Made by a program: the position numbers and the translations under genes
Shown: one piece after another, positions 4,112 to 30,437 of the stretch
How positions within the stretch are numbered: position 1 is the stretch's first letter
Layout: each line of letters opens with the position of its first letter
Notes under the pieces: generated by a model
Seen by the model: the letters and a program-made list of their open reading frames with translations, nothing else
The model's database searches: none
What the model was told of the DNA's origin: nothing
Source of the DNA: Candidatus Saccharimonadota bacterium
Lineage (GTDB): Bacteria > Patescibacteriota > Saccharimonadia > Saccharimonadales > UBA10212
Length of the DNA stretch: 64,000 nucleotides
Direction of reading: 5' to 3'
Assembly: GCA_022841445.1 (NCBI GenBank)
Contig: JALHRM010000001.1
Coordinates: 259,777-323,776 of the forward strand

Positions 4112-7100
4112 TGTGGGCAGTCCGCCACTGTCGTTAGCCTGTATTGGTCGGCTATCCGAACATGGAAGTGATGATGGTGATTATCTTCGTATTGCATTAC
4201 GCCGGGCAACCCTTTGCTTCTAACATATGTATTAAAATCACTTTGAACAGCAGGGTCATTATAGAATATATACTTTATAATTCCAGTGTCTGCAAACATT
4301 CTGCCCAGGTCTTTACTGGCTTGCACGCTACCGGCAGTATTGGCCGCTATTTGTCCTTGGGTGGTGATGTCTACATCCACACCGTTTTCGTGACTGGCAT
4401 GCCCAGCCGCCGCGTTAAGGTCGCCAACTATAAGTTTATTACTCGGGTATTTTTGATTCCAGGCCTTAGACACTGTATAAATTGCATTTACCAGTTCTTT
4501 GCTACCACAGCGCTCAGTAGGCGGTGTGTTGGGGCTAAAGACGTATTCTCCCCCTGGGGCTTCGGGCATTCTGTAATAATTTGTGCCGGCAACCTGCGTA
4601 GCACCCGGCAAGGATGATAAGCCAACAGAGCCCTTAAAGTAAGGGGTTAGCTCATCATTTACGACTTTTAATGCAACGGCAGGACTGGCTGCTATGTTAT
4701 TTGTTGAATCATACCCATCGCAGAAAGGCGCAAATGTTCCACTAAGGCACTCTGGTGTGACATTACGGTCAACAAGAGTAAACCCTGTAGCTGGATCTCT
4801 CATCAGCAGTGATTTGCGCAGTGGCCCTGTTGCATTAATAATGGTGTTGTATTCACTTGAACCCTGGTTGTGGCCAACCAGAACGGCAACATCGGCTAGG
4901 ATTTCTTGGATGGTCTTATCTGGGTTGCGTTGTCTCGCTACAGCTTCAACTTGAGCGAGGTTAAAATTGGCGAACTGCACGCCGGCCATCCCAATTTGCC
5001 AGAGACCGGCGCTACAAAGCTCAAGAATATTACTCTTTTGCCCTTGACTGCCACAGTTTGAATTACGGTGTGGGTTGCCACCGGGAATGATATTTCCGTT
5101 AAGTATTCCTTCCTTTAGCGACCACCAGGTGACGCGCGCTGCCATTGCTGCTTGTTCATTTGCGCTGCCAGGAAGCCGCGCCATCACATCGTCTTTTATG
5201 TACTTCACCCACCTTACCTCATTAGGATTTAGCGTATAGCCGTTTAGTGAAGTCAGGCTTACATCTCCCGTAGACTCTTCGGCTGTGTCGGCGGCTGGCT
5301 GGCTATTATCGCTGTAACCATCGTCGTCGGTGTACCCAAACCGCGTACCTATGCCACCGCGGACGGCATTGTCTCTTAACCAGCAGTTATGGATTGTTTT
5401 TGCAGTGGTGTCTTCTTGGTCGGGGTCACCAACGGCGGCACCCACTTTCTCGTATACGTAGTCATACCAGTCATTGCTGTTTGTCATAAGTTCCCACGTA
5501 AGTTCAGTGTCTGGTACTCGTGCAACTCCCAGAACCGCTTGGATATTGCTCCCTTGTTTTGGCTGGCTCGTTATGGGTTTAAGCTGGTCACATTCTGGCG
5601 GCCAGTCATAGCTGTCAATGGCGGCTACTTTTGCCCCAGCGTAGGAGTCATTAGTGACCGGCTGGGCGCCGACTCGATTAAATAACATACCTGGTAGTAC
5701 ATTTTTGATGTTAGACAGACTAGAACCTACTACGCTAAAAACGTCCGGCGTGTCGTTTATTCCGTCTGCTGTGCTAAACAAAGTTCTTGAAGCGAGTGAG
5801 TCGTACTGATTAAGTGAAAAGTACCTTTCATTAAAACTCAGGCTGCGGTCGGCCTCGGCGCCAGCAAGGAGCTGTTGAGCATGGTTGGCGCTGGTTGCGG
5901 TTGTGACGGCTGCTCCGAGCATGCGGCTAGTGGATTCGGCGGTATAGGCGGCACCCTGCACGATGTAGTTCATGAACACCCCCCCGGGTTCTAGGCCACT
6001 CAAGATTGGACCCGCACCCAAAAATGCTGCAATCTTGTTGGCGATAATTGACATAAGTCGAGCAAGGTCATCATCAAGACCTAGAACTGCAATAAATTTT
6101 TCAACCACAAAATTTACGGCTCCACCAAAGACTTCAGCTATCTTTAAAATTCCATCGAATATTTTCCCAAAAAACGAATCCCTTGCTGCCCGTACAGCTT
6201 CCGCAATCGGGCCTGTAATTTTGCCGATGGTACTCAGGTAGGCATCTTCCAGTTGTTCGGCGCGATTTGCTGATCCAATAACCGCATCCGGACAGAGGTA
6301 GTGGTACTGCTTATCGTTTTCAATGATTTCTTTTTCGTTTTCAGGGTTAGAAAGTTTAGCTTGATGGTCTGGTTCGCAGTAAGCCGTCCTTCCGAGATTA
6401 CTTGGTCCAGCCGCATATACCTTGCCGGGTTCTGATGCTTCAGCGGATCGAACCGGAGAACTACCAGCCACCGCCACCGCCCAGGCTTCACTATTTGATG
6501 CATTCCCGAGTACTTGCATAAAAGCATCAAATTCTTCTGGAGTGACGTCGCCCTTTATAATTTGGTCTCTGGATGTTTTCATCACCTGATACAAGCCGAC
6601 GGCTTGCGTTGCTTTAGCGACTTGGACGGTTTTGGCGATTGCTCCGCTTCGTATGTTGCTGTCGATTTTTTCGATAAGGTCGACGGTCGCTGCAATGTTT
6701 ACGACACTGAATGCGACGCCGGTGCGTTTAAGTATTTCGCTCAGGAACTCGGCGGTTTTATACGTCTCCGTACCAGTTGTGGTGGTTTGGGTACCGTCTG
6801 GGTTATCGGTTGTCCGAGACGTAGTAATGCTCTGGTCGTTTGTTCCGTTATCACCCACCACTGTTGTGGTGTCTGCTCTATGCTGTGGATCACTCGGGTC
6901 GTCACTCTTTTTACAATCAGACAATCCAAACAGGCAACGGACTAGCTTGCCGTTCTTTGTGCTTTCTGGCAGGGCTTTGTCGAGTATTTTGTTGCGGATA
7001 TTGGTGCGTCTTTCTTCTAGATTGCTACGTGTTTTTTCAAAAAACCGCCAGTCCCTGACACCGGTCATATTTTGAATCGACTTTCTAAGCATGCGCCGCT

Positions 7101-16455: not shown

Positions 16456-16514
16456 ACTATAGCACAACAGTTTTGAGCGGACAATTTACCGGCTACAGTA
16501 AATTTTGGTATAGT
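16456..16514. promoter_or_regulatory. Back-to-back divergent promoters for the T4SS machinery genes (minus) and the pilin operon (plus)
   Basis: Plus strand: TTTACC (16485-16490), 18-nt spacer, extended -10 TGgTATAGT (16506-16514), 11 nt before ATG 16526. Minus strand: TTGTCC (rc of 16479-16484), 17-nt spacer, TGcTATAGT (hexamer rc of 16456-16461), 8 nt before ATG 16447. Neither ATG has an obvious SD. Confidence 0.45.
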
Positions 16515-16525
16515 TAGCCATTAGA

Positions 16526-17173
16526 ATGTTGCTTAATAAAATATGGGCACGAAATTTTATGAACGTTGTACTGGCGGTGCTGCTTGTGGCCGGCTTTACT
16601 GCCACAGCAGTAACGTTTCAAATGGGGCTTGCTGAAGCCGCACCTTCGAAATGCTATGCCAGAAACGCGGCGGGTAAAGTCCAGCACTCTTCTTGTAATG
16701 GCTTAACGGCAGCCCAGCGCCGCATAAATGACAAATGCTTTTTAGCGCAAACAATCGGTGGTGCATATACCCAGGCGGGTGATCTTGGTAGTGGAGTCTG
16801 TAATTCTCTGCAACGGCAGGCTCAAGCCGCACCAGCACCTGGAGGAGGTGCTCCAGACGAAGATCAAACGTTGGGTGCAGGTGGCACTGCTGGCTGTAGT
16901 GGCACGGTAAATTTACAGAACTGCGTAAAAAATAATCCAATTGTTACTAAAGTGCTTCGCCCCTTGGTGTTGTTTTTGAGTGCGGTGGTTGCGATTGTAA
17001 TCATAGGTAGTTTAATTGTTGCGGGTATCCAGTATTCTGCAGCACAGGACAACCCTCAGATGGTTCAAAAATCGAAAGATCGTATCCGTAATGCGCTTAT
17101 TGCGCTTGGAGCGTTTATGTTCGCTCTTGCCGGTTTACAGTACTTAATCCCCGGGGGCATAATTAGCTTATGA
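16526..17173 (+). CDS. VirB2/TrbC-like T4SS pilin paralog 1 of 7 (largest, 6 Cys)
   Basis: Signal/TM segment FMNVVLAVLLVAGFTATAVTFQMGLAEA. A 6-Cys, Gly/Ala-rich exposed segment. C-terminal two-helix core LVLFLSAVVAIVIIGSLIVAGIQYSAAQDNPQMVQKSKDRIRNALIALGAFMFALAGL. Confidence 0.65.
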   Translation: MLLNKIWARNFMNVVLAVLLVAGFTATAVTFQMGLAEAAPSKCYARNAAGKVQHSSCNGLTAAQRRINDKCFLAQTIGGAYTQAGDLGSGVCNSLQRQAQAAPAPGGGAPDEDQTLGAGGTAGCSGTVNLQNCVKNNPIVTKVLRPLVLFLSAVVAIVIIGSLIVAGIQYSAAQDNPQMVQKSKDRIRNALIALGAFMFALAGLQYLIPGGIISL

Positions 17174-17589
17174 TCACGTACGCTTTGGCCTGGCTGGTCA
17201 CCACTTTCCCAAGTTTTGCTCAGACTCCGGCGGTATGTGAGAAAAAAGGTTTTCTTGGACTGCCGGCGTGGTATGAATATCTACCCGATGCCGCCTTCAA
17301 GGCGGACGGCGTGGGGGGGTGCTTAATTGATTTAAAGTTCGATGGTCCGGCTGGTCCGAATGTGCTTATACCTATTGGGTTAGCCGTACTAGATGGCTTG
17401 CTAAGAATAGCTGGAGTCGTGGCTGTTATTTTTGTAATCGTTGCTGGATTTAACTTCATAACTTCGGCTGGTAGTCCAGATAAAGCCGCTTCAGCACGGC
17501 AACAAGCTATTAATGCTCTTGTTGGTGCGGCAATTGCCATTAGCGCAGCAGCAATCGTGCAGTTTGTCGGTGGAAGGATTGCTGGATGA
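17170..17589 (+). CDS. VirB2/TrbC-like T4SS pilin paralog 2 of 7
   Basis: ATGA overlap with paralog 1. Signal peptide ...FPSFAQ/T, then 2 Cys. Core GVVAVIFVIVAGFNFITSAGSPDKAASARQQAINALVGAAIAISAAAIVQFV. Confidence 0.7.
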   Translation: MITYALAWLVTTFPSFAQTPAVCEKKGFLGLPAWYEYLPDAAFKADGVGGCLIDLKFDGPAGPNVLIPIGLAVLDGLLRIAGVVAVIFVIVAGFNFITSAGSPDKAASARQQAINALVGAAIAISAAAIVQFVGGRIAG

Positions 17590-17873
17590 TTGAATACTTG
17601 GCGTACCAGATATTTTTTGGAGGCCCAATTAAAGACTCTCTGCCGCAAGTTGCTGCCGACGAAGGAGCATTCGCCAGAGGCCTTAATATTATTTTTGTTC
17701 TGGCGGGTGCAATCACTGTTTTGGTCATAACTGTAGCCGGGCTATTCTACGTACTTTCTCAGGGCGACCCAAGCAAAACATCGCGTGCTAAAAATGCCAT
17801 TATTTACGCAGCGGTCGGGTTGGTTATTATTGTTCTATCTGGAGTCATCGTTAACTTTGTGTTTCAGTTTTAA
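17586..17873 (+). CDS. VirB2/TrbC-like T4SS pilin paralog 3 of 7 (short; no signal peptide, no Cys)
   Basis: ATGA overlap with paralog 2. The 95-aa product is essentially the core only: LNIIFVLAGAITVLVITVAGLFYVLSQGDPSKTSRAKNAIIYAAVGLVIIVLSGVIVNFV. Confidence 0.65.
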   Translation: MIEYLAYQIFFGGPIKDSLPQVAADEGAFARGLNIIFVLAGAITVLVITVAGLFYVLSQGDPSKTSRAKNAIIYAAVGLVIIVLSGVIVNFVFQF

Positions 17874-18283
17874 TGATGAGATGGATAACTAAAAAACTAG
17901 CCATCGTTTTAGCAGCAGTGTTCAGTTTATTGTGTTTATCTGGGTCGGTCGCCTATGCTGGTTTTAACCCTTTGCAAGATGCCTGTAGTGTCCCAAACTC
18001 CGATCAAAGTGCTGTCTGTAAAGAAAAAACTCGCACTGGTAACGATGATCCCATTGCTGGGGATGATGGCATTTTGATAAGAGGCACTCGCGTCATTGCT
18101 ATTGTTGTTGGAGTAGCTGCTACCATCATGATTATTGTTGGCGGCCTAATGTTCATACTGTCCGACGGTAATAGTGATAAGGCGGCGAATGGTAGAAAAA
18201 CTATCATTTACGCAATTGTTGGTATTGTTATTGCGGTGCTCGCCGGCCCTGTTACGCAATTTTTGACAAATCGGGCTCTTTAG
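17873..18283 (+). CDS. VirB2/TrbC-like T4SS pilin paralog 4 of 7
   Basis: TAATG overlap with paralog 3. Signal peptide ending VAYA/G, with Cys pair ACSVPNSDQSAVC. Core IAIVVGVAATIMIIVGGLMFILSDGNSDKAANGRKTIIYAIVGIVIAVLAGPV. Confidence 0.75.
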   Translation: MMRWITKKLAIVLAAVFSLLCLSGSVAYAGFNPLQDACSVPNSDQSAVCKEKTRTGNDDPIAGDDGILIRGTRVIAIVVGVAATIMIIVGGLMFILSDGNSDKAANGRKTIIYAIVGIVIAVLAGPVTQFLTNRAL

Positions 18284-18329
18284 ACATAAGCTACTACAGT
18301 AAACCTAAAAAGTGTAATTTTAAGTAACT

Positions 18330-18728
18330 ATGCGAAACAAAACACTCACAATTTTTGCAACCTTAGCACTTATCGCGACTGTATTGTTCCCCGTTTTCAA
18401 TTACGGGATGGCTAATGCTGGATGCCCGGCGAACGCCAGCCCAAAGGATGCCGTTAATTGTGGTGTACAGGCGGCTGGGGGTGATACTTCTGACCCTGAG
18501 ACAAAGATAAATAGTGCCATTGCAGCTGCTATAAACATTTTTTCTTTCGTGGTTGGTTTTGCAGCAGTCATCATGATTATTGTTGGCGGCTTACGGTACA
18601 TCTTGAGCAACGGCGATAGTCAAAAAGTTTCCAGTGCTAAAAACGCTATTATTTACGCCATTGTTGGTCTGGTTATCGTAGCCTTGGCACAAGTGATTGT
18701 GCGGTACGTTTTTAGCCGGGCAACTTAA
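18330..18728 (+). CDS. VirB2/TrbC-like T4SS pilin paralog 5 of 7
   Basis: Signal peptide ending MANA/G, with Cys pair GCPANASPKDAVNC. Core INIFSFVVGFAAVIMIIVGGLRYILSNGDSQKVSSAKNAIIYAIVGLVIVALAQVIVRYV. Confidence 0.75.
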   Translation: MRNKTLTIFATLALIATVLFPVFNYGMANAGCPANASPKDAVNCGVQAAGGDTSDPETKINSAIAAAINIFSFVVGFAAVIMIIVGGLRYILSNGDSQKVSSAKNAIIYAIVGLVIVALAQVIVRYVFSRAT

Positions 18729-18804
18729 AGCCTCTCCGCCATTGCTTAGCATAGGCGTGTTGTGATATAAGTGTTGTCAGAAGTTAATAAATAAGGAACT
18801 TTAT

Positions 18805-19254
18805 ATGCAAAAAATAAAACAATTTGCAGCCATGGTTGCCGCAAGTATCGCACTTGTTGGGGCTTCCCTGTTTGGGGTAGTGGCTGTTGCTTACGCTGGC
18901 TCAGGCGCCAATATTGATGCCAACCTATGTCAAGGAATAAGTCTTGATGCTAACACCGTGAATACCGCAGGTACTGCACCGGCGGACACATGTAGCGAAG
19001 CGGGCGCCAATGATCGTGTTAACAATATCATCAAAACGATCATAAATATCTTTTCACTAGTTGTGGGTGTTGTATCCGTCATCATGATCATTATTGGTGG
19101 CTTTAAGTACATTACCAGTGGTGGTGAAAGCAGTAACGTTACAAGTGCCAAGAATACTATCCTCTACGCTATCATTGGCCTTGTCGTCGTAGCATTGGCA
19201 CAGATTCTCGTACGATTCGTCTTTAGTCGGGCTACTTCAACTGCTGGACCATAA
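18805..19254 (+). CDS. VirB2/TrbC-like T4SS pilin paralog 6 of 7
   Basis: SD AAGGA lies 8 nt upstream. Signal peptide ending VAYA/G, with Cys pair LCQGISLD...ADTC. Core INIFSLVVGVVSVIMIIIGGFKYITSGGESSNVTSAKNTILYAIIGLVVVALAQILVRFV. Confidence 0.75.
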   Translation: MQKIKQFAAMVAASIALVGASLFGVVAVAYAGSGANIDANLCQGISLDANTVNTAGTAPADTCSEAGANDRVNNIIKTIINIFSLVVGVVSVIMIIIGGFKYITSGGESSNVTSAKNTILYAIIGLVVVALAQILVRFVFSRATSTAGP

Positions 19255-19281
19255 GCTAACAAAAGTGGTATAATATATTTT

Positions 19282-19755
19282 ATGCCCAATAAAATACGAA
19301 ATTTCTTGGTTGGCACAACGACCGTATTCATTATTGCCGCCCCTGTGGCTGCCTCTGCTCAGACTAATCCTACTACAACTCCTGCACCCCCGACGAATGA
19401 CCCAAACACTAGCCTAACTGTCGAGCAAGTTTCCCCTGATATTGTTCGCGGGCTGTGCCAAGGTATTAATTTGCAGGTAGGTACCGATTGCAGTCAAACC
19501 GAATTAAGTGATGAAGAAGCGACCGAGCGTGTTAACGCGCTCATACGCACGATAATTAATATCTTCTCACTGGTGGTTGGCGTGGTCGCGGTAATTATGA
19601 TCATTATCGGCGGCCTTAAATACATTACCAGCGGTGGTGATAGTAGTAATGTAACGGGCGCCAAAAACACCATCTTGTACGCTATCATTGGCCTTGTAAT
19701 TGTGGCGCTATCTCAGGTTATTGTTAGGTTTGTGCTCAGTCGAGTGACGCAGTAG
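19282..19755 (+). CDS. VirB2/TrbC-like T4SS pilin paralog 7 of 7
   Basis: It has its own extended -10, TGgTATAAT (hexamer 19269-19274), 7 nt before the ATG, suggesting a leaderless transcript. Signal peptide ending AASA/Q, with Cys pair LCQGINLQVGTDC. The core is 60/72 identical to paralog 6 by hand alignment. Confidence 0.75.
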   Translation: MPNKIRNFLVGTTTVFIIAAPVAASAQTNPTTTPAPPTNDPNTSLTVEQVSPDIVRGLCQGINLQVGTDCSQTELSDEEATERVNALIRTIINIFSLVVGVVAVIMIIIGGLKYITSGGDSSNVTGAKNTILYAIIGLVIVALSQVIVRFVLSRVTQ

Positions 19756-19856
19756 GGACCTTGATAAAAAGACTTAGATTATTGATCTAGTATTTAAGAA
19801 AATCTTAACTACAAATAACATCCATAGCCTAAGCTCGAAGACTAGAATCCTTAAGT

Positions 19857-21207: not shown

Positions 21208-21297
21208 GGAAGGGTGTCCGAGCGGTTTAAGGAAACGGTCTTGAAAACCGTCGTACCGGCAACGGTACCGTGGGTTCGAATCCCACCCCTTCCGCCA
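21208..21297 (+). tRNA. tRNA-Ser (anticodon UGA), CCA encoded
   Basis: Hand-folded cloverleaf: acceptor GGAAGGG/CCCTTCC, anticodon stem-loop ACGGT-CTTGAAA-ACCGT, long variable arm CGTACCGGCAACGGTACC, T arm GTGGG-TTCGAAT-CCCAC, then G-CCA. Confidence 0.9.
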
Positions 21298-21455
21298 ATT
21301 TTTGCATCGACCTTCATGGTCGTGGCAAAAATTAGTGAAGGCAAGATGCGAACCCAAAAAAAGGTTCGGGCGCCAAGAAGACGCGCGCAGAAGTTTACTT
21401 CGAGCACGTTGACTGCGCATTCGCGTTAGCGAATCATCCCACCCCTTCCGCCAAT
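21298..21455 (+). repeat. tRNA-3'-flanking conserved module, copy A (158 nt): AU-rich hairpin, conserved hairpins, 35-nt core, then a 20-nt duplicate of the tRNA-Ser(UGA) 3' end
   Basis: The core GCGCGCAGAAGTTTACTTCGAGCACGTTGACTGCG (21383-21417) is 34/35 identical to 25264-25298. Hairpins: ATTTTTGC...GCAAAAAT (21298-21333), CGAACC-n8-GGTTCG, GCGCAG-n22-CTGCGC, ATTCGC-gtta-GCGAAT. ATCCCACCCCTTCCGCCAAT at 21436-21455 repeats 21280-21299. Confidence 0.7.
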
Positions 21456-21493
21456 CTGTAGCTAAGTGTTATGATTGGATAGTTCTAAAATTA

Positions 21494-21586
21494 GGAGAGG
21501 TACCCAAGAGGCTGAAGGGGGCGGTTTGCTAAATCGCTAGGGGGGAGCAATCCCCCGCGAGGGTTCGAATCCCTCTCTCTCCGCCA
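21494..21586 (+). tRNA. tRNA-Ser (anticodon GCU), CCA encoded
   Basis: Acceptor GGAGAGG/CTCTCTC(C), anticodon stem-loop GCGGT-TTGCTAA-ATCGC, long variable arm TAGGGGGGAGCAATCCCCCGC, T arm GAGGG-TTCGAAT-CCCTC, then G-CCA. Confidence 0.9.
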
Positions 21587-25094: not shown

Positions 25095-25171
25095 GCACCC
25101 GTAGCTCAGCTGGATAGAGCGTTGGCTTGCGGAGCCAAAGGTCGTAGGTTCGAATCCTGTCGGGTGTACCA
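25095..25171 (+). tRNA. tRNA-Arg (anticodon GCG), CCA encoded
   Basis: GCACCCG-TA-GCTC-AGCTGGATA-GAGC-G-TTGGC-TTGCGGA-GCCAA-AGGTC-GTAGG-TTCGAAT-CCTGT-CGGGTGT-A-CCA. The 5' half closely resembles E. coli tRNA-Arg as I recall it. The fold has a G1-U72 wobble. Confidence 0.85.
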
Positions 25172-25328
25172 AAATAAAATCCTCAGCAAAGCTGGGGTTT
25201 TTATTTTGGTAGATTCGCTAAGCGAATCCGAACCTACGCAGCAGGTCGGACGCCAAGGAGCCTGCGCGCAGAAGTTTACTTCGAGCACGGTGACTGCGTG
25301 TTCACTGCAGTGAACCATCCTGTCGGGT
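25172..25328 (+). repeat. tRNA-3'-flanking conserved module, copy B (157 nt): terminator-like hairpin, conserved hairpins, 35-nt core, then a 12-nt duplicate of the tRNA-Arg 3' region
   Basis: Terminator-like hairpin CCAAAATAAAATCCTCAGC-aaa-GCTGGGGTTTTTATTTTGG (25169-25209). Further hairpins GATTCGC-taa-GCGAATC and CCGAACCT-n7-AGGTCGG. Core 25264-25298. Hairpin GTTCAC-tgca-GTGAAC. ATCCTGTCGGGT at 25317-25328 repeats 25155-25166. Confidence 0.7.
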
Positions 25329-25332
25329 AAGT

Positions 25333-25935
25333 CTAAAATCCTAATGCAGCACGTACAGAGTCGAAAGTGGGCTCATTGTAGGCAACGTACTTCCCTATCG
25401 AGTTGCCGGCGCTATCCAGTTTCACGAATGTTGTTTGCAAAGTTATCCCATATTTTTGTCGCAGACTTTGTGCGGTGTCGTAATCAACTTTAAAAACTGT
25501 TACGCCCGAGGGGACTCCATCGTTTTTGATGTCGGCGTCAACTTTTTGGCACTGTGGGCACCAGCTAGCATGGAAGAATAATACTCGCTGCCCTGATGTT
25601 GAAGCTAGCGCGCTGTCAGTGTAGCTAATATATGAGCCAGTAGCAGGTGCTGGCGGAACGGACTTTGGTTGAGCTTGCGGTTGCACAGCGGGTGCAGCAG
25701 CAGGTGCTGGAGGAGTACTGGGGGTTGCTTGGGCTGGAGGAGCTACAGCTGCGCTCTCCGTTGTTGGTTTCAAAATCTTTTCATTGTCGGTTTTTATGTC
25801 ACTCGTTTTTTTGGTAATGACGGAAATTTCTTGATTCTGCCTACCGGATCGTGCCAGGGTCCATGTGCCGACTATAGTTAACAGTGCAAAGAACACAACA
25901 ACCCATACTCGAAAGGCCGGGATTTTTTTCAGCAC
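25333..25935 (-). CDS. Membrane-anchored extracytoplasmic thioredoxin-like protein (paralog 1)
   Basis: N-terminal TM (VWVVVFFALLTIVGTWTLA), a Pro/Ala-rich linker, and a thioredoxin fold with the active site FFHASWCPQCQ. GTG start directly abuts the stop of the upstream NrdH-like gene. Confidence 0.8.
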   Translation of the reverse strand: MLKKIPAFRVWVVVFFALLTIVGTWTLARSGRQNQEISVITKKTSDIKTDNEKILKPTTESAAVAPPAQATPSTPPAPAAAPAVQPQAQPKSVPPAPATGSYISYTDSALASTSGQRVLFFHASWCPQCQKVDADIKNDGVPSGVTVFKVDYDTAQSLRQKYGITLQTTFVKLDSAGNSIGKYVAYNEPTFDSVRAALGF

Positions 25936-26184
25936 CTAAATGCCGAGTACTTTCTTAAATTTGCCTTGGTCAAAACCAAGGATTTTAGTGATGTTGCCGG
26001 CATCATCTTCAATAACACTGAAAGGTACGCCAAAGTTACCATCATTAACACTCATGAATTCAGCCATTCCAGCCGGGTCATCATCAGTAACAACTTTCTT
26101 GAATGGAATATTTTGTTTATCCAGCCATGAGTACAGCGCATGACAAAAGCTGCACGTGGTTGTTGAGTAAATAGTAATGTTCAT
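25936..26184 (-). CDS. Glutaredoxin/NrdH-like small redoxin
   Basis: 82 aa. MNITIYSTTTCSFCHALYSWLDKQNIPFKK carries a CxxC motif in the typical glutaredoxin-fold N-terminal position. Confidence 0.75.
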   Translation of the reverse strand: MNITIYSTTTCSFCHALYSWLDKQNIPFKKVVTDDDPAGMAEFMSVNDGNFGVPFSVIEDDAGNITKILGFDQGKFKKVLGI

Positions 26185-26210
26185 CGATTTTCTCCCTCTG
26201 TTATTTTAAA

Positions 26211-27935
26211 CTAGCTGCCAAACGTAAACGCATTAACCGTTACTCCGCTCGGAAACGTTAGTGTTAGTGTTGAGCCGTCTAAGAATGAATCTGCATTTAT
26301 AATTTTATATAATCTGGCGGAATCAATTGTTATGGTACCGTCACTGCCTACATCTTTCCCGCTAAGTACTCCTGGCTTGTCGTCGATACTCACTCTTACT
26401 TTTAAGCCCGCTTCTCCGTCCATGACTAAGTACACTTCTTTGGCCGAATACCTGAACCTGAGCGTTGAACCATCGGCGTTACTAGTTGATGATTCTTTGC
26501 CGATAGTCCAAGTGCCGCCGAGTGACCATTCATGATTCTTTAGATTATTCTTGAGTAAATAATTAACGGATTTATCAGCTTCAAATTCGTTTATGTTGGC
26601 GAACCGTTCTCCGCGGCTGTAGCTCAGATAAGTCTCATGCGTTTGCTTGCGACTAACTAGTGAATTTTGTCCGTTTTTGGTAATTTTTTCGCTAACTGTT
26701 TTACCTGCTTCCTTGAGCAGTATTTGAATCGCCTCTTCAGTTTCTGCATACTCACCTTCTCCAAAGTGCGTGTAGCGAACAGCACCTTCTTTATCAATTA
26801 GGTATTTGGCTGGCCAAAAGCGGTTGTCGTACGCCTGCCAAGTTGCAAAATCGTTGTCCAACCCAACCGGATATTTGATTTTTGCATCATCGACTGCGTC
26901 TTGAACATTTTTAGTTACTTTCTCGAATGCGAATTCTGGTGCATGTACACCGAGAATTACAAGGCCTTTGTCGCTGTATTTATTGTGCCAGTCGTTGAGA
27001 TACGGTTGTGTTCGCTGACAGTTGATGCAAGAGTACGTCCAGAAATCAATGAGCACTACCTTGCCTTTTAGCTTTTGCAGTGTTTCGCCATCGGAGTTAA
27101 TCCAATTTTGTATGCTGCGTAGCTCAGGTGCTTGGTATGGCTGATCAATATTTAACACAGTACTGTCGCCCTCTTTCTTCGGGGATGACCGATTAGAATC
27201 TTCTTTGAGGAGCAATCTTTGCTCGATGTCGGTAACGTCAAACGGTAGTTTTTCTATCACAAATGTTTGGAATTTTTTATCATAACCTGTGATGATCATC
27301 AGCCCGACAGCGATAAGCAGTATTGCTAATGCCCGGTTAAACCATCCGGTAGGCGAAATTACCCAGCCGAGTTTACTAATTAGCCGTCTCCCGCCGAGCG
27401 AAATAGCAAGCAGAGCAAGTCCCAAGCCAAGCGCAAAAGCAATTATGTAAACAAGCCCAAGCGCTAAATTGACCGGTAAAACAGTTGCTAGCACTAGTGC
27501 ATACACGGGACTACAGCTGGCAAATACTGGCCCAAGCGCTGCACCGGTCATGATCTGGCCTATAAGTCCGGAATTTTTATTAGCCCGAGCCAAGAATTTG
27601 TTCGAGGTGTGTTCTAGTCCTGTGCCTGCACTTACTCGAACCCACAAACTAGGGAACAGTAAACTTATGCCAAGTAATATGACAATGCCACCCGAAACAT
27701 AGAGCCAAAACTGCGGATCAACGCCTATCAGCGCAGTCGTAGCCTTGAGTAGTACGGTAAACAGGATGACCGAAACAACCAAGCTGGCGGTGATGATGTA
27801 GGGCTTTTTGCGGTCAAACTTCTTGTCCGTACCGGGGATTACAGAATTACCGACAATAACTGGCAATAGCGTGATCATGCAAGGAGCCAGAGACGTCAAC
27901 ATACCGGCGATAAACGATGAAAGCAGTAAAAGCAT
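26211..27935 (-). CDS. DipZ-like fusion: CcdA/DsbD-type thiol-disulfide transporter, thioredoxin-like (redoxin) domain, and a C-terminal beta-rich domain
   Basis: The polytopic N-terminal half has the two conserved membrane Cys (SLAPCMITLLP; FASCSPVYALV). The middle domain has VVLIDFWTYSCINCQRT (CxxC). The ~170-aa C-terminal domain and overall layout match the mycobacterial DipZ architecture as I remember it. Confidence 0.8.
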   Translation of the reverse strand: MLLLLSSFIAGMLTSLAPCMITLLPVIVGNSVIPGTDKKFDRKKPYIITASLVVSVILFTVLLKATTALIGVDPQFWLYVSGGIVILLGISLLFPSLWVRVSAGTGLEHTSNKFLARANKNSGLIGQIMTGAALGPVFASCSPVYALVLATVLPVNLALGLVYIIAFALGLGLALLAISLGGRRLISKLGWVISPTGWFNRALAILLIAVGLMIITGYDKKFQTFVIEKLPFDVTDIEQRLLLKEDSNRSSPKKEGDSTVLNIDQPYQAPELRSIQNWINSDGETLQKLKGKVVLIDFWTYSCINCQRTQPYLNDWHNKYSDKGLVILGVHAPEFAFEKVTKNVQDAVDDAKIKYPVGLDNDFATWQAYDNRFWPAKYLIDKEGAVRYTHFGEGEYAETEEAIQILLKEAGKTVSEKITKNGQNSLVSRKQTHETYLSYSRGERFANINEFEADKSVNYLLKNNLKNHEWSLGGTWTIGKESSTSNADGSTLRFRYSAKEVYLVMDGEAGLKVRVSIDDKPGVLSGKDVGSDGTITIDSARLYKIINADSFLDGSTLTLTFPSGVTVNAFTFGS

Positions 27936-27954
27936 TTTTATTAGTTTAAGCGAG

Positions 27955-28479
27955 CTAGTTCAGCTGCGTTTTAAGCTCATCGTAACTGTAGCTGCCGTTC
28001 CATTGCTTCAGTTCGTTGCCATCTTTGTCTACTTGCACAAAAGTATGTTGAATTGTCACGCCATATTTTTGCTTGAGTTCTGTTGAATCGTCGTAGTCAA
28101 CTTTAAGCAAAGTCAGACCATCTGGTGTTGATGAGCTGGTAAAATTCTTTTCAGACTCCTGACACTTAGGGCACCAGCTAGCGTGGAAGAACAGTACAAC
28201 ATCGCCCTTTTCGGCATTGGCTAGTTTCGCTTGATCGTAGGCAGTATAACTGCCTTTTACACTCATGGCATCACCGGCTTTTTCCATGGCGTCATCTTCT
28301 TTTGCCATTTTATCCTTTTCCATCGCCTCTCTTTCCATGGCAGCAGTTTCATTCTTCTTTTCCATGGCCATGCGCTCAGCTTCAGCATTTTCGTTATTAG
28401 TTGATTGACTGAATGCAAATGCACCTCCCGCTAAAACGACAACAGCAATTATTGCTGCAACGATATAGTTCTTGTTCAT
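27955..28479 (-). CDS. Membrane-anchored extracytoplasmic thioredoxin-like protein (paralog 2) with a Met/Glu/Lys-rich linker
   Basis: Start at ATG 28479 (MNKNYIVAAIIAVVVLAGGAFA), preceded by AAGGAG. Linker ERMAMEKKNETAAMEREAMEKDKMAKEDDAMEKAGDAM. Active site FFHASWCPKCQ. The C-terminal ~110 aa are clearly paralogous to 25333-25935. Confidence 0.8.
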   Translation of the reverse strand: MNKNYIVAAIIAVVVLAGGAFAFSQSTNNENAEAERMAMEKKNETAAMEREAMEKDKMAKEDDAMEKAGDAMSVKGSYTAYDQAKLANAEKGDVVLFFHASWCPKCQESEKNFTSSSTPDGLTLLKVDYDDSTELKQKYGVTIQHTFVQVDKDGNELKQWNGSYSYDELKTQLN

Positions 28480-28562
28480 TGTTTCATGCTCCTTAGTTAT
28501 TACCACTAACAGCATAGCGGCACGGCCGCGTTAATGTCAAGTCAACTTAACATTTTATGAAA

Positions 28563-28940
28563 TTACTTTACGATATATTTACCTAATAACTTAGCGAGTA
28601 TCATTACCATTAGGGCAACGATAAGCAGTGTTGGGTGTTCGTGTCTTATCGTCTGCACAACTACAGCAATTGACAAAAATATTGCTCCAGCAAGGAACCC
28701 CAGTCGATCCGCTGCTAGCACTATTTGCGTTTCTCGTTCATCCCTTGGCTGCTCTCTCCATACCAACACCGCAAAAAGTGCAAAGGCTGCTATGAATAAA
28801 CCTATTGCTAGCATGACTATTGAGCTGGGCATAAACGGGGATATCAGGTCAGAACAGAGTATAAGGGATGTTATTACTAAAATACCTATGATTAACGCGC
28901 TGTTGTTATTGTCATGTGATAAGAAATTTTTCATAACCAA
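28563..28940 (-). CDS. Small polytopic membrane protein paired with an XRE regulator
   Basis: 125 aa with 4 predicted TM helices. It overlaps the upstream HTH gene by 10 nt, so the two are likely co-transcribed. Confidence 0.6.
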   Translation of the reverse strand: MVMKNFLSHDNNNSALIIGILVITSLILCSDLISPFMPSSIVMLAIGLFIAAFALFAVLVWREQPRDERETQIVLAADRLGFLAGAIFLSIAVVVQTIRHEHPTLLIVALMVMILAKLLGKYIVK

Positions 28941-29143
28941 AATAGCTCCCCTATCGGCACTTTTAGTACTTGTGCTAATTTTAATGCAAGCAATACGCTC
29001 GGCGTATAATTACCCTTTTCAATAGCTATAACCGTCTGCCGTGTAATGCCAACTTTCAGCGCTAATTCTTCTTGCGTCAAACCGGTAGTCTTGCGGTGTT
29101 TGCTTACCGAATTCTTTGGTGTTTCAGTTATTTTGATAAACAT
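28931..29143 (-). CDS. XRE-family helix-turn-helix transcriptional regulator
   Basis: 70 aa. LTQEELALKVGITRQTVIAIEKGNYTPSVLLALKLAQVLKVPIGELF is a canonical Cro/C1-type HTH. Confidence 0.85.
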   Translation of the reverse strand: MFIKITETPKNSVSKHRKTTGLTQEELALKVGITRQTVIAIEKGNYTPSVLLALKLAQVLKVPIGELFWL

Positions 29144-29315
29144 AATGTATAGCCAACTTTACAAAGTAATTATCGTCGTTTACTGGAATTGTGTCAATAC
29201 ACACGTAATATTGTAATTATTGTAAGAATCTATACAGCTATTGCTTATGTGTGGCAATATAGTAAGCGTAACCTGCTTTAGTAGGTGAAGTATTAACACG
29301 TAATCGGGGGTATGT

Positions 29316-30437
29316 ATGGTAAAGAAGTATATTCGATATGGAGCAGCTGGAGCTACATCGTTAGTTATGGTGGCATTTGGGTTTGGAGGTGTTGCATCTG
29401 CCGCTAGCATAAGTATGACCGGCCCAGGATCAACTAACTACATTAGCGGCGGTCACTCAGGATCAATCTATTTGACCGGCCCCGGCTCTACAAATGTCAT
29501 CCGTGGTGGCTATGGCGGCGGAAGTATCCACACTACCGGTCCCGGTTCAACTAATTACGTGAGTAGTGGCCATGGTTACTCCAAGTACAAAAAAGTTAAC
29601 TATGTAAAGTACGACTACGCTTGTGAGTCAGGCAATTCACACAAGTGGAGTGACAAATCTAAATGGCACACCGATTGTTGTGATGTCTATAACCAAGGCA
29701 GTTGGTATAGCTGGAACAGCCACAAGTACGCCTGCCAAGACCACTCATCTCACGAAGCTAAAGACTGCGGGTATCACCACGTCAAGGCTAACTCATGGGT
29801 GAATCACGGCTATAAAAAAGTCAGCCATCACTACGACTACGACCATGATCGTGACTACAAAAAAGATGATCACAAAGTCAAATGGTCGGTGAAGCACGAC
29901 TACGATCATAAACAGAAAAATCACCACGATGACAAGAAGGACTATCGTGATCACAACAACTATAACAAGCACGACAACAACGATGATCACAAAGACTATA
30001 GCCGAAACCACGACTACAAGCCGTCGCATGGCTCAAGCCACGGCTATAGTGTCGACAACGACAATGACGTGAAGGTTCGTAATAATACTTCTCAGTCAGC
30101 AGTAACTGGTGATGCAAAAGTTTACGGTAACACCCACGGCGGCAACGCCACATCCGGCGATGCAACTAATGAAGCAGAAACTAGCACGAACGTAAATATT
30201 TCAAATCACTATGGCTCAAACACGACTTCTTCACACGAAGATGACGATGCAAATCACCACAGCAAGAGCTATTACTCACACGAAAACAACAACAATGTAA
30301 GTGTCAGCAATAACACTTCACAGTATGCTCGTAGTGGTAATGCAACTGTCAGCCACAACACTCACGGTGGCAACGCTACATCTGGCAACGCCAGTAATTA
30401 CAGCAGCACATCCACGTCGGTAAGTATCGATAACTAG
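29316..30437 (+). CDS. Secreted His/Asp/Lys/Tyr/Asn-rich repeat protein (unknown function)
   Basis: Signal peptide ...FGFGGVASAA/S. Three TGPGSTN(Y/V) repeats and a 6-Cys block. A His-rich low-complexity core (HHYDYDHDRDYKKDDHK...HDNNDDHKDY). Two ~40-aa repeats NNTSQ.A.(T/S)G(D/N)A.V..NTHGGNATSG(D/N)A(T/S)N...TS(T/V)..I(S/D)N. Confidence 0.7.
   Translation: MVKKYIRYGAAGATSLVMVAFGFGGVASAASISMTGPGSTNYISGGHSGSIYLTGPGSTNVIRGGYGGGSIHTTGPGSTNYVSSGHGYSKYKKVNYVKYDYACESGNSHKWSDKSKWHTDCCDVYNQGSWYSWNSHKYACQDHSSHEAKDCGYHHVKANSWVNHGYKKVSHHYDYDHDRDYKKDDHKVKWSVKHDYDHKQKNHHDDKKDYRDHNNYNKHDNNDDHKDYSRNHDYKPSHGSSHGYSVDNDNDVKVRNNTSQSAVTGDAKVYGNTHGGNATSGDATNEAETSTNVNISNHYGSNTTSSHEDDDANHHSKSYYSHENNNNVSVSNNTSQYARSGNATVSHNTHGGNATSGNASNYSSTSTSVSIDN

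Follow-up and report, generated by a model that had tools for sequence, protein, structure and literature searches.

Several described systems resemble the module reported here, each of them in part. In tRNA-integrating islands and their gene-less derivatives, the CIMEs (cis-mobilisable elements), a direct repeat of the tRNA 3' end likewise brackets the DNA behind an intact tRNA; both show tandem accretion at one tRNA, and islands occur at the same sites as the modules. Casposons, among other elements, duplicate the tRNA 3' end as their target-site duplication; in the module, too, the DNA is flanked by a direct repeat of 12-20 nt that stems from the tRNA 3' end of the target and by this origin will match whichever tRNA is hit. 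Integron attC sites and folded attP sites of the CTXphi type act, as the module would, as folded single strands in which structure and covariation are kept above sequence; they lie beside a fixed platform site, gene-module-gene arrays are seen here in loci L014 and L020, and the AAC...GTT of attC is present in the arms of one module hairpin (H1). With the PATEs of IS200/IS605 elements and TnpB omega RNA the module has in common that it is hairpin-rich and about 100 nt long and would be active as single-stranded DNA, that insertion would take place 3' of a short motif without duplicating this motif, and that a scaffold is followed by a flank-derived 'guide'. Finally, tRNA-like RNAs (the tmRNA domain, YrlA/Y-RNA-like and viral RNAs) also contain a T-arm-like GGTTCG...ATCC together with the 3' strand of an acceptor, in many cases including CCA, which derive from tRNA or mimic it. 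Weinberg et al. 2017 (PMC5737381) discuss attC-like motifs and single-stranded DNA, none of it tRNA-linked in TM7. A description of a tRNA-linked element of the present kind was not found in the literature searched.

The DNA analysed here (the window) is a stretch of 64,000 nucleotides from a Candidatus Saccharimonadota bacterium, in which the original prediction had described a structured module directly behind tRNA-Ser(UGA) (copy A) and a second one behind tRNA-Arg(GCG) (copy B). Both segments are members of a Saccharibacteria-specific family of tRNA-linked modules. In copy A the tRNA, the hairpin behind it, the CGAACC/GGTTCG hairpin, the core, the hairpin H3 and the 20-nt repeat are all present where they had been placed. 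The parts of copy A are the following.

21208..21297, + strand: tRNA-Ser(UGA), the host tRNA of module A (ARAGORN; Rfam tRNA match of 57.5 bits)
21280..21299, + strand: S1, tRNA positions ~59-76 plus AT, recurring at the module end (exact 20-nt repeat)
21298..21333, + strand: hp, a hairpin with an A/T-rich base (sequence and fold)
21332..21356, + strand: S', a degenerate antisense copy of the tRNA 3' third, ttagtgaaggcaagatgcgaaccca (local alignment)
21349..21368, + strand: H1, the hairpin CGAACC(C)-A7-GGTTCG
21369..21435, + strand: insert of the beta subtype at T-loop position 58 (consensus fold of 6 beta copies)
21383..21417, + strand: core, 35 nt, in the limits given by the original prediction (sequence match to copy B)
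21419..21434, + strand: H3, the hairpin ATTCGC-GTTA-GCGAAT (sequence; beta consensus fold)
21436..21455, + strand: S2, a sense copy of tRNA positions 59-76 plus AT, ATCCCACCCCTTCCGCCAAT (exact repeat)
21494..21586, + strand: tRNA-Ser(GCU), the downstream neighbour of copy A (ARAGORN)

The hairpin hp stands where other copies have a terminator hairpin; it lacks a following T-run, and the terminator scan detected nothing at 21298..21333. Without a terminator after tRNA-Ser(UGA) and flanked by two tRNAs, copy A is almost certainly transcribed. Its antisense arm S' aligns locally with the reverse complement of the tRNA 3' end at z = 2.8; its best-kept stretch, GATGCGAACCCA, is antisense to TGGGTTCGAATC apart from a single mismatch. 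The 3' strand of H1 is at the same time the T-loop start of the sense pseudo-copy. Within the insert, an outer stem CGC/GCG is followed by a stem GAC/GTT, the conserved core hairpin and H3; our own covariance model matches the core at 21374-21416. In the orthologue of copy A the H3 loop is changed from GTTA to GCAA while the stem is unchanged. The parts of copy B are as follows.

25095..25171, + strand: tRNA-Arg(GCG), the host tRNA of module B (ARAGORN; Rfam)
25172..25209, + strand: t1, the intrinsic terminator of tRNA-Arg (terminator scan: stem 25181-25197 plus T-run)
25213..25227, + strand: Hx, the hairpin ATTCGC-TAA-GCGAAT (sequence)
25226..25238, + strand: S', ATCCGAACCTACG, an antisense match to tRNA-Arg CGTAGGTTCGAAT with a single mismatch
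25243..25249, + strand: AGGTCGG, a degenerate GGTTCG, the sense T-loop start (alignments)
25250..25316, + strand: insert of the beta subtype, including core and H3
25264..25298, + strand: core (34/35 positions as in copy A; covariance model match 25255-25297)
25300..25315, + strand: H3, the hairpin GTTCAC-TGCA-GTGAAC (consensus fold)
25317..25328, + strand: S2, a 12-nt sense copy of tRNA-Arg positions 59-70, ATCCTGTCGGGT

The terminator t1 is kept in L066/L067 (alignment, BLAST), and the arms of Hx are identical to those of H3 in copy A. For S' of copy B a local alignment z of 3.6 was obtained, and for the proximal complement z = -3.9. The agreement of the two cores at 34/35 positions was confirmed. 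Two core matches were found in the window and none in 100 shuffles, so the core is not explained by chance. As predicted, copy B ends in the sequence of its own tRNA, in the form of a 12-nt copy rather than the full 3' end. The proposed GCGCAG...CTGCGC stem with its 22-nt loop holds for copy A and does not extend to the family, whose consensus is a nested stem with an internal loop.

Beyond these two sites the 20-nt core was found at 65 further loci, nearly all of them from Saccharibacteria where the matches carried titles: the exact core occurs in 37 copies in 35 genome loci and in 30 metagenome loci, and about 9 more, diverged copies were obtained with our own covariance model. The expected position beside a tRNA was borne out for 25 of the 39 copies of the genome and window set, in which the core lies 82-124 nt past a tRNA and the module ends with 8-20 nt of this neighbouring tRNA, from the T-loop ATCC on. 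The tRNAs concerned span 14 amino acids. Among the retrieved loci more than half of the tRNAs bear a module, in a sample biased by the choice of loci through the core.

The members of the family are hairpin-rich modules of about 150 nt without genes on the 3' flank of tRNA genes. Their 5' part is a hairpin or terminator, often followed by an antisense copy of tRNA positions ~46-60, which is present in about half of the copies and pairs with the sense 46-57 segment. The middle consists of this sense copy of positions 46-57, which ends in GGTTCG, and of the insert at T-loop position 58. The insert of about 65-75 nt is followed, after a small hairpin, by a sense copy of positions 59-7x, and is flanked on both sides by tRNA-derived sequence, e.g. 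GTCGCTGGTTCG before and ATCCAGTCC behind it. Each module is a pseudo-copy of the 3' third (~46-76) of the adjoining tRNA, split at position 58 by a common insert; the inverted copy of the T-arm region and the recognition of GGTTCG and the terminal copy as the two halves of a split tRNA 3' third were not part of the original prediction. The tRNA-derived arms always match the adjoining tRNA and the insert is common to all, its alpha subtype being found at at least 10 tRNAs and the beta subtype at 4. It always lies after GGTTCG(A) and before ATCC, where A58 is either replaced or present once and the insertion point itself is not duplicated. The CCA/acceptor end is absent from the terminal copy in at least 7 loci, copy B among these.

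The module differs from each of the systems named above. The direct repeat of a tRNA-integrating island is present and measures 20 nt in copy A and 12 nt in copy B, with 8-20 nt in those other copies for which a tRNA was identified. Modules, however, lack an integrase and in most cases any cargo; a conserved structured insert at position 58 divides the repeat partner, an inverted tRNA copy is present as well, one insert serves tRNAs for 14 amino acids, and the module is under purifying selection. Neither a recombinase of its own nor an autonomous relative was found in the census of 143 neighbouring ORFs, among the 25 commonest families listed, or in the IMG/VR, phage and plasmid searches. Unlike casposons, the modules have no terminal inverted repeats, no Cas1 and a variable repeat length, and they contain extra tRNA-derived pieces (positions 46-57, sense and antisense) inside the unit. 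From attC they differ in that GTTCGAA of the module does not fit the crossover GTTRRRY, in that no association with IntI or Xer is known, and in that the arms derive from the host tRNA, the internal-loop core is highly conserved and most units are gene-less. Of the attC boxes RYYYAAC / GTTRRRY, the CGAACC/GGTTCG of H1 fits AAC/GTT only, and no integrase was seen among the 25 commonest families of the neighbouring ORFs. In comparison with tRNA-like RNAs a conserved acceptor-stem partner is missing, the T-loop is interrupted and CCA is often absent; ARAGORN and Rfam did not recognise the module as tRNA-like.

Database searches gave a consistent picture. With Rfam release 15 at the gathering threshold only 5 tRNAs were found in the window, and at E <= 1 in four module loci nothing was found at the modules, the matches elsewhere being tRNAs and chance-level matches; the known RNA family that the original prediction had named as its counter-evidence did not appear. 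An exact-core scan of IMG/VR returned 0 matches, and module BLAST searches of phage and plasmid collections no match. The Pfam census of the 143 ORFs within 3 kb of modules revealed no recurrent family, and specifically no recurrent integrase, transposase, HUH enzyme or reverse transcriptase, among the 25 commonest families listed. Likewise, no recombinase and no recurrent family was seen among the 25 families listed for 62 window ORFs. An autonomous form, i.e. a long T-loop insert with genes, was looked for and not found, and an exact-protein look-up of a flanking 200-aa gene gave no record. By these comparisons the module matches no RNA family or mobile element that we found.

The family consensus fold is nested, with an outer covarying stem (X stem), G-C/C-G pairs, the conserved internal loop GCRCAG / CGAGCAY and an apical 4-bp hairpin. 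The stems covary, as the original prediction had suggested from the two H3 hairpins: the X stem scores 0.204 versus 0.068 +/- 0.011, with 0/500 shuffles as high, pair 9-35 is standard in 50 of 52 sequences with 6 pair types, the apical stem covaries among diverged copies, and 4 pairs of the beta consensus fold (6 copies) are altered on both sides. The H1/Hx region is structured family-wide (median z -2.2). These features indicate that the single-strand structure is under selection. C(GNA)G hairpin loops occur 30 times on the + strand and 2 times on the - strand. Such triloops form extraordinarily stable DNA mini-hairpins; the loops of the terminators at module loci look different (by eye, uncounted).

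Conservation at the level of individual modules was assessed with the orthologue of module A in L066, a close relative. Module A differs from it by 10%, with 0/35 differences in the core and 0/20 in S2, whereas the flanking intergenic DNA differs by 31-32%. This comparison indicates that module A is under purifying selection, functional and not decaying. Occupancy of the sites is variable. In L037 tRNA-Ser(GCU) follows 4 nt after tRNA-Ser(UGA) without a module, an empty site of the kind that the original prediction had advised to look for. At the tRNA-Arg site L066 carries a different, core-less insert and a 198-aa gene; homology to copy B breaks at ~25202, the 3' end of the t1 hairpin, and is found again from 25333 on, where the convergent gene has its stop codon, so that both breakpoints fall outside the tRNA. 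Tandem module units are found in L007, L018 and L020. Two modules surround a 327-aa ORF in L014, and three modules share L020 with a single ORF of 289 aa; the majority of modules stand alone and carry no gene. Copies A and B are as divergent from each other as beta copies are between genomes, and there is thus no sign of recent transposition. In about 10 loci a foreign island borders on the tRNA end or on the terminal copy, with L028 and L035 being >99% identical up to the island junction, and the ends of ordinary islands in the same genomes read GTGTTCCA..CGAG.. and then continue with the final 5-9 nt of the tRNA. A 3.9-kb segment of L012, which has genes for Mom-like, Ham1, YunG and guanylate-kinase proteins but none for an integrase, was considered as a full-length element and rejected: an ordinary island has here been inserted between the tRNA and a module that was present earlier.

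Indirect signs suggest that the module acts as DNA rather than RNA. These are the + strand triloops, the lack of a G.U strand bias in the X stem (G.T = A.C = 18), equal minimum free energies of the + and - strands (among the strand comparisons only the loop census is asymmetric), the position of most copies directly behind strong intrinsic terminators, and the lack of a conserved promoter, the promoter scan being at chance level. The reading that we prefer, tentatively and at somewhat less than an even chance, is a non-autonomous recombination module of the attachment type that acts as folded single-stranded DNA. It would be attachment-like in the sense of integron attC or a hairpin attP, with the + strand folding as single-stranded DNA. 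The unit of 59-76 copy, hairpin, antisense arm, 46-57 copy and insert can be regarded as a circular permutation of a 'tRNA 3' third with insert', which could have entered by strand exchange at the boundary of positions 58 and 59 of the tRNA gene; after such an exchange an intact tRNA would stand to the left and the copy with the insert to its right. A putative trans-acting enzyme encoded elsewhere may use the conserved internal loop as its handle, and the terminal tRNA copy, once installed, may be a secondary docking site for integrating islands. Some observations fit this reading less well. That the same insert subtype is found at many tRNAs, yet with locally matched arms, is not predicted by simple site-specific recombination, and the right boundary of the terminal copy varies (8-20 nt), unlike a fixed crossover. 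Moreover, the terminator adjoining the tRNA appears to be original in most loci and is kept in L066 despite the different module, so insertion after the terminator fits better than an exchange within the tRNA. Also against the reading are the lack of a recurrent recombinase among the 25 commonest families of neighbouring ORFs, the absence of copies from the viral, phage and plasmid collections searched, with neither an excised nor an autonomous form known, and the missing signs of recent transposition. The miniature non-autonomous element at tRNA 3' ends, one of three explanations in the original prediction, came closest: the large family, the matched terminal copy, the variable occupancy and the tandems agree with it, while the tRNA pieces that flank the insert and are also inverted, the lack of a recombinase and the age and conservation of module A do not.

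A structured RNA is a serious alternative, though somewhat less probable than the DNA reading. It would arise by co-transcription with the tRNA or from read-through, be freed by tRNA processing, and consist of a hairpin scaffold and a tail. For copy A, which no terminator separates from its tRNA and which lies between two tRNAs, the co-transcribed RNA proposed in the original prediction is more plausible than elsewhere; for the family in general the terminators, the missing promoter, the absent G.U over A.C excess and loops that are stable in DNA argue against it, as does the lack of an energy advantage of the + strand. The layout, with 3-4 hairpins, a protein-binding internal loop and a single-stranded tail equal to the tRNA 3' end, could likewise, with similar reservation, be that of a guide-like RNA or a mimic of the tRNA end. 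Strong purifying selection on core and tail, covarying stems and strand-specific loops all speak for such an RNA. Its tail has no partner in the module (the distal 15 nt of S2 against the rest of the module: median complement z +0.34, significant in 1 of 39) and would be free for pairing in trans. Some H3 loops are of the GNRA or UUCG type (GTAA, GCAA, TTCG), including the GCAA that replaces GTTA in the orthologue of copy A, but the dominant loops are GNA triloops and not GNRA tetraloops. The RNA reading is furthermore difficult to reconcile with the absence of CCA and acceptor end in a sizeable minority of copies, and no closing acceptor/T 'minihelix' is conserved: a tRNA-like rod in which the 5' arm pairs with the terminal copy was found in L025 only and was rejected. 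Rfam, as described, gave no match even at E <= 1. 

It is also conceivable, at a low probability, that the modules are programmable guides, in which the hairpin scaffold and the free tail of the tRNA 3' end are used by a putative trans-acting enzyme to find tRNA genes. GCRCAG/CGAGCAY would then be the protein handle and the T-loop TTCGA the adjacent motif, in RNA or in single-stranded DNA, assignments that we consider just as improbable. The purpose could be the insertion of DNA at safe sites or the shielding of essential single-copy tRNA genes from integrating elements.

A miniature IS200/IS605-type (palindrome-associated) element in the T-loop of a spare pseudo-tRNA copy appears unlikely. 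The insert lies behind a fixed motif, yet this motif belongs to a pseudo-copy whose own origin is left unexplained. The TAM-like GGTTCG(A) is followed by a structured insert and a flank of 12-20 nt, the insertion point is not duplicated with A58 replaced or single, the hairpins look suited to single-stranded DNA, identical insert subtypes are found at many tRNA types, and some subtypes have pairing between the insert and its GTTCG flank (P stems of delta and epsilon, read off the alignment). The further assignment of the left TTCGA as target/TAM, of the hairpins as ends and omega-RNA-like scaffold and of the 59-7x flank as guide is to be viewed with equal scepticism. In the Pfam census of neighbouring ORFs a TnpA/TnpB gene was seen near none of the copies among the 25 commonest families listed, and no paper treating Saccharibacteria and TnpB together was found in the literature searched. 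The insert of 65-75 nt is below the size of known omega RNA scaffolds, and the core hairpin and H3 are dissimilar, whereas the ends of IS200/IS605 elements resemble each other. An active nuclease with such a guide would cut the intact neighbouring tRNA gene that the guide matches, and the supposed targets, insert-less pseudo-copies, were not found among 87 tRNAs.

Equally improbable is an inert by-product, arising from fold-back or template-switch errors at the T-loop palindrome (TTCGAA) and the terminator, or as decayed att remnants: the order sense, hairpin, antisense, loop, sense would be expected from two snap-back events, all hairpins (Hx, H1, core, H3) are composed of T-loop-like ATTCG/CGAAC motifs, the terminator is duplicated with the tRNA end in L024 (z = 10.7) and L037, and islands in these genomes use tRNA 3' ends for integration, but one insert with a conserved core of 20-25 nt at >60 loci in dozens of assemblies and metagenomes rules out independent errors as its source, purifying selection exceeds that on flanking DNA threefold, compensatory changes are found, the loops are strand-specific, and insert-less fold-backs as precursors were not found among the 87 tRNAs. 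For the same reasons of purifying selection, covarying stems and strand-specific loops, the collapsed attL-attR scars of the original prediction are disfavoured.

Further candidates were rejected. A joint duplication of terminator and tRNA end is not general, with z > 3 in 3 of 39 loci (L024, L027, L022). In L037 such a duplication appears similar by eye. Hammerhead or other small ribozymes and box C/D-like guides as well as parS, dif and DNA-uptake sequences were dropped for lack of their defining motifs, and a class C group II intron fragment, a type that inserts after terminators, because Rfam gave no group II match and the motifs of domain V are lacking; the spacing of GGTTCG to the core is only ~15-20 nt, versus group II domains I-IV upstream.

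Overall, arms copied from the host tRNA together with a common insert point to a templating mechanism that is not accounted for by any described element family. The genomes of Saccharibacteria, some of which can be transformed naturally, are tiny and contain each tRNA gene in a single copy. As a recombination site, the module would represent an unrecognised route of gene flow beside the tRNA genes of Candidate Phyla Radiation (CPR) bacteria, possibly with single-stranded DNA as the substrate. As an RNA, it would be a new, abundant and tRNA-linked class of non-coding RNA, and, should the programmable guide prove true, ultra-small bacteria would possess guide-encoding elements of a new class. 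The module also is a practical marker of island boundaries and for the annotation of Saccharibacteria genomes.

The original prediction of two related segments in the window, each extending about 157 nt past a host tRNA, tRNA-Ser(UGA) at 21208-21297 (copy A) and tRNA-Arg(GCG) at 25095-25171 (copy B), was borne out. The 35-nt core is found in both copies (21383-21417 and 25264-25298) with one mismatch, with none expected (100 shuffles). As claimed, copy A terminates in an exact 20-nt repeat (21436-21455 = 21280-21299) and copy B in a copy of its own tRNA, here 12 nt long (25317-25328). Rfam matches in the window are limited to five tRNAs, none of them at the modules.

The anatomy of the module was derived from copies read in register. 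The tRNA is followed by a hairpin, usually a bona fide terminator composed of A-tract, stem and T-tract, often by one small hairpin Hx (e.g. ATTCGC-GTA-GCGAAT), and then by S', in which tRNA positions ~46-60 are copied in antisense, and a short loop. The 3' part starts with positions 46-57 in sense orientation, whose last bases are GGTTCG; the insert and the small hairpin H3 come next, and S2, a sense copy of positions 59-7x, closes the module. The elements of the two window copies are:

21298-21333, copy A, first hairpin
21332-21356, copy A, S'
21349-21368, copy A, hairpin H1
21369-21435, copy A, insert
21419-21434, copy A, H3
21436-21455, copy A, S2
25172-25209, copy B, terminator
25213-25227, copy B, Hx
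25226-25238, copy B, S'
25243-25249, copy B, degenerate GGTTCG
25250-25316, copy B, insert
25300-25315, copy B, H3
25317-25328, copy B, S2

In many of the loci retrieved for comparison (L numbers) the 12 nt preceding the insert are identical to the tRNA, e.g. GTCGCTGGTTCG (L021, L026) and GTCGAAGGTTTG (L007). Thus, the right part of the module is the 3' third of a tRNA with ~65-75 nt inserted at T-loop position 58. In 18/39 copies, pairing of the antisense arm with 46-57 reaches z < -2. For the distal S2, comprising the 3' strands of T-stem and acceptor, a partner within the module was not found (median z +0.34). This rules out a conserved acceptor/T 'minihelix', and S2 is therefore a free tail.

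The insert forms a conserved structure that shows covariation. Its subtypes (alpha, beta, delta and 'other' from a classifier, gamma and epsilon assigned by eye) differ in basal stems and internal loops and have N-CGC-R-CAG, an apical hairpin and then CGAGCA-Y in common. Among 52 distinct sequences, the core-enclosing stem covaries with a score of 0.204 vs 0.068 +/- 0.011 (0/500 shuffles as high), 85% of the cells are paired for the structure as compared to 29-47% in slid controls, and 50 of them form a standard pair at the innermost variable position (six pair types). The apical stem is compensatory in diverged copies (GAAG/CTTC, GGAG/CTCC, GGAA/TTCC), and in one diverged copy it is replaced by a 29-nt hairpin with the flanking loop nucleotides kept. 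Six copies of the beta subtype, to which A and B belong, share a nested consensus fold in which both partners have changed at four pairs; the H3 arms in beta copies read ATTCGC/GCGAAT, GTTCAC/GTGAAC and GTTGC/GCAAC. Another conserved structured domain (TTCC-Y-TGCTTGR, accompanied by long hairpins) is absent from Rfam and occurs in tRNA-flank modules with or without the core, together with it in L018 and L034 and alone behind other tRNAs:

L018 ~4360-4450, - strand
L034 ~4700-4830
L017, - strand, 3' of tRNA-Pro(CGG) 2524-2598
L056 98-350
L041, 3' of tRNA-Ser(CGA)

The module family is large and restricted to Saccharibacteria. The core 20-mer CAGAAGTTTACTTCGAGCAC yielded 37 matches at 35 loci in bacteria (one genome per species), all except two labelled Saccharibacteria or Saccharimonadales, a further 30 in metagenome contigs and 0 in IMG/VR. 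One contig, CAYMKU010000056.1 (L028), is labelled Ignavibacteriaceae; it is >99% identical to Saccharibacteria contig L035 over >1.3 kb and probably mis-binned. A covariance model made here from 52 distinct core copies recovers all copies and ~9 diverged ones, with exactly two in the window. In 25/39 copies of the first set (genomes and window) the core lies 82-124 nt 3' of a + strand tRNA, and an 8-20-nt copy of the same tRNA's 3' part follows 18-35 nt past the core; this pattern is likewise present in metagenome loci. The host tRNAs represent 14 amino acids (Glu, Tyr, Leu, Arg, Gly, Met, Asn, Phe, Pro, Val, Ala, Ser, Asp, Trp). In a sample of 87 distinct tRNAs from the retrieved loci, which is biased towards module carriers, 45 are followed by a core-bearing module, 4 by a module of this architecture that has a different insert and 38 by nothing. 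One core copy (L008 7228-7247 = L044 7716-7735) immediately follows the stop codon that ends a prepilin-like gene (224 aa); GTTCG lies 22 nt upstream of this copy and tRNA arms are absent. It may be a remnant of epsilon-like type, or the core may serve another use here.

Selection and turnover were assessed in L066 and L067, which are closely related to the window (93% amino-acid identity for the adjacent ClpB-like protein, 80% nucleotide identity over 5 kb). Module A has an orthologue in both, which diverges by 10% overall as compared to 31-32% in the intergenic DNA on either side, by 0/35 in the core and by 0/20 in S2; change in H3 is confined to the loop. Upstream of tRNA-Ser(GCU), TATGATTGGATAG (21476-21488) is also kept, the remaining spacer being 32% diverged, and is a possible -10 region of a promoter specific to this tRNA. 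Five type IV secretion pilin-like genes clustered just upstream of the tRNA-Ser locus (16500-19800) are conserved in both relatives. Module B is not conserved in L066. Homology stops at ~25202, the terminator 3' end, and restarts at 25333, where the convergent gene has its stop codon; the site holds CGTAGGTTCGA, a 41-nt core-less alpha-like insert, ATCCCCGTCGGC and then a 198-aa gene, as well as two island-type att remnants. The ~3.8 kb 3' of module B (25397-29201), encoding thioredoxin-like and ResA-like (574 aa) proteins and small ORFs, are a variable island adjoining tRNA-Arg without counterpart in L066, in which the 198-aa gene is present and just 64 nt remain from the 3' end of the thioredoxin-like gene. 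The 373-aa ORF 29316-30437 contains imperfect 34-37-nt repeats, both tandem and dispersed (29416-30290), which point to a repetitive protein and have no relation to the module. The window may adjoin the replication origin, since it starts (1-1500) with the DnaN C-terminus and RecF/SMC-type proteins are among its matches; GC skew on the + strand increases from ~16 kb. In L037, tRNA-Ser(UGA) and tRNA-Ser(GCU) are separated by 4 nt and the module is absent. Units occur in tandem in L007, L018 and L020, and two copies flank a gene in L014. Where units abut (L007, L018), the later one is [46-57 copy]-insert-[59-7x copy] only.

In ~10 modules a foreign island lies between tRNA and terminator. At the right end of such islands a diverged T-arm of the form (G)GTGTTCCA(G/T)TTT...CGAG...TAG joins the final 5-9 nt of the tRNA; this signature probably represents attR in a family of Saccharibacteria islands that integrate at tRNAs, and recurs at:

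L028 ~880-910, just upstream of the pre-module terminator (also L040, L042, L050, L051, L053, L014, L020)
L066 ~3970-4010 and ~4640-4670

L028 and L035 are >99% identical from the island junction onward. Thus, recombination is active at these loci, and the islands differ in kind from the module. The island between tRNA-Ser(CGA) and module in L012 (2365-5878) carries genes for a 606-aa protein weakly matching the Mom family, a Ham1-type NTP pyrophosphatase, a YunG-family protein and a guanylate-kinase-like protein, and could be a nucleotide or DNA-modification cassette.

The best-supported reading, which we favour tentatively, is a non-autonomous recombination module acting as folded single-stranded DNA. 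Circular permutation of a tRNA 3' third with insert yields the unit [59-76, hairpin, S', 46-57, insert], and the order seen, the tandem units and the empty sites are exactly what strand exchange at 58|59 in the tRNA gene would produce. The same insert subtype is found at different tRNAs (alpha at least 10 types, beta 4), which site-specific exchange by itself would not predict. No recurrent protein family was found near the modules, no recombinase is among the 25 commonest families listed, and no autonomous, viral or plasmid version was found in IMG/VR, phage/plasmid collections or the module loci. The main rival, a structured RNA of scaffold and tRNA-like tail, is somewhat less likely. Copy A, exceptional in its first hairpin without T-run and its position between two tRNAs, is for these reasons very probably transcribed. 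The majority of modules begin right behind a strong terminator, and no conserved promoter was found at modules. Folding energies are equal on both strands, for the insert (-22.0 vs -22.6 kcal/mol) as well as over 135 nt (-42.8 vs -41.9 kcal/mol); G.U pairs amount to 10% vs 8%, and the enclosing stem has 18 each of G.T and A.C. C(GNA)G triloops number 30 on the + strand vs 2 on the - strand; terminator loops at module loci looked unlike them on inspection. In DNA, d(C-GNA-G) mini-hairpins are exceptionally stable. Overall, we modestly prefer a role of the + strand as single-stranded DNA. A miniature IS200/IS605-like element with omega-RNA-like layout is improbable, as is an inert fold-back or att scar. 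Some other explanation outside those considered has a similarly small chance.

Nothing of this kind is described in Rfam, the sequence collections or the full-text literature searched. Weinberg et al. 2017 (PMC5737381) treat single-stranded DNA and attC-like motifs, with nothing tRNA-linked in TM7. Single features are shared with IS200/IS605 miniatures, integron attC sites and the att repeats of islands that integrate at tRNAs; each of these has a defining feature that the module lacks. We file the module with the known kind of tRNA-flank-associated non-autonomous structured elements, with a smaller chance that it is a categorically new guide-encoding module.
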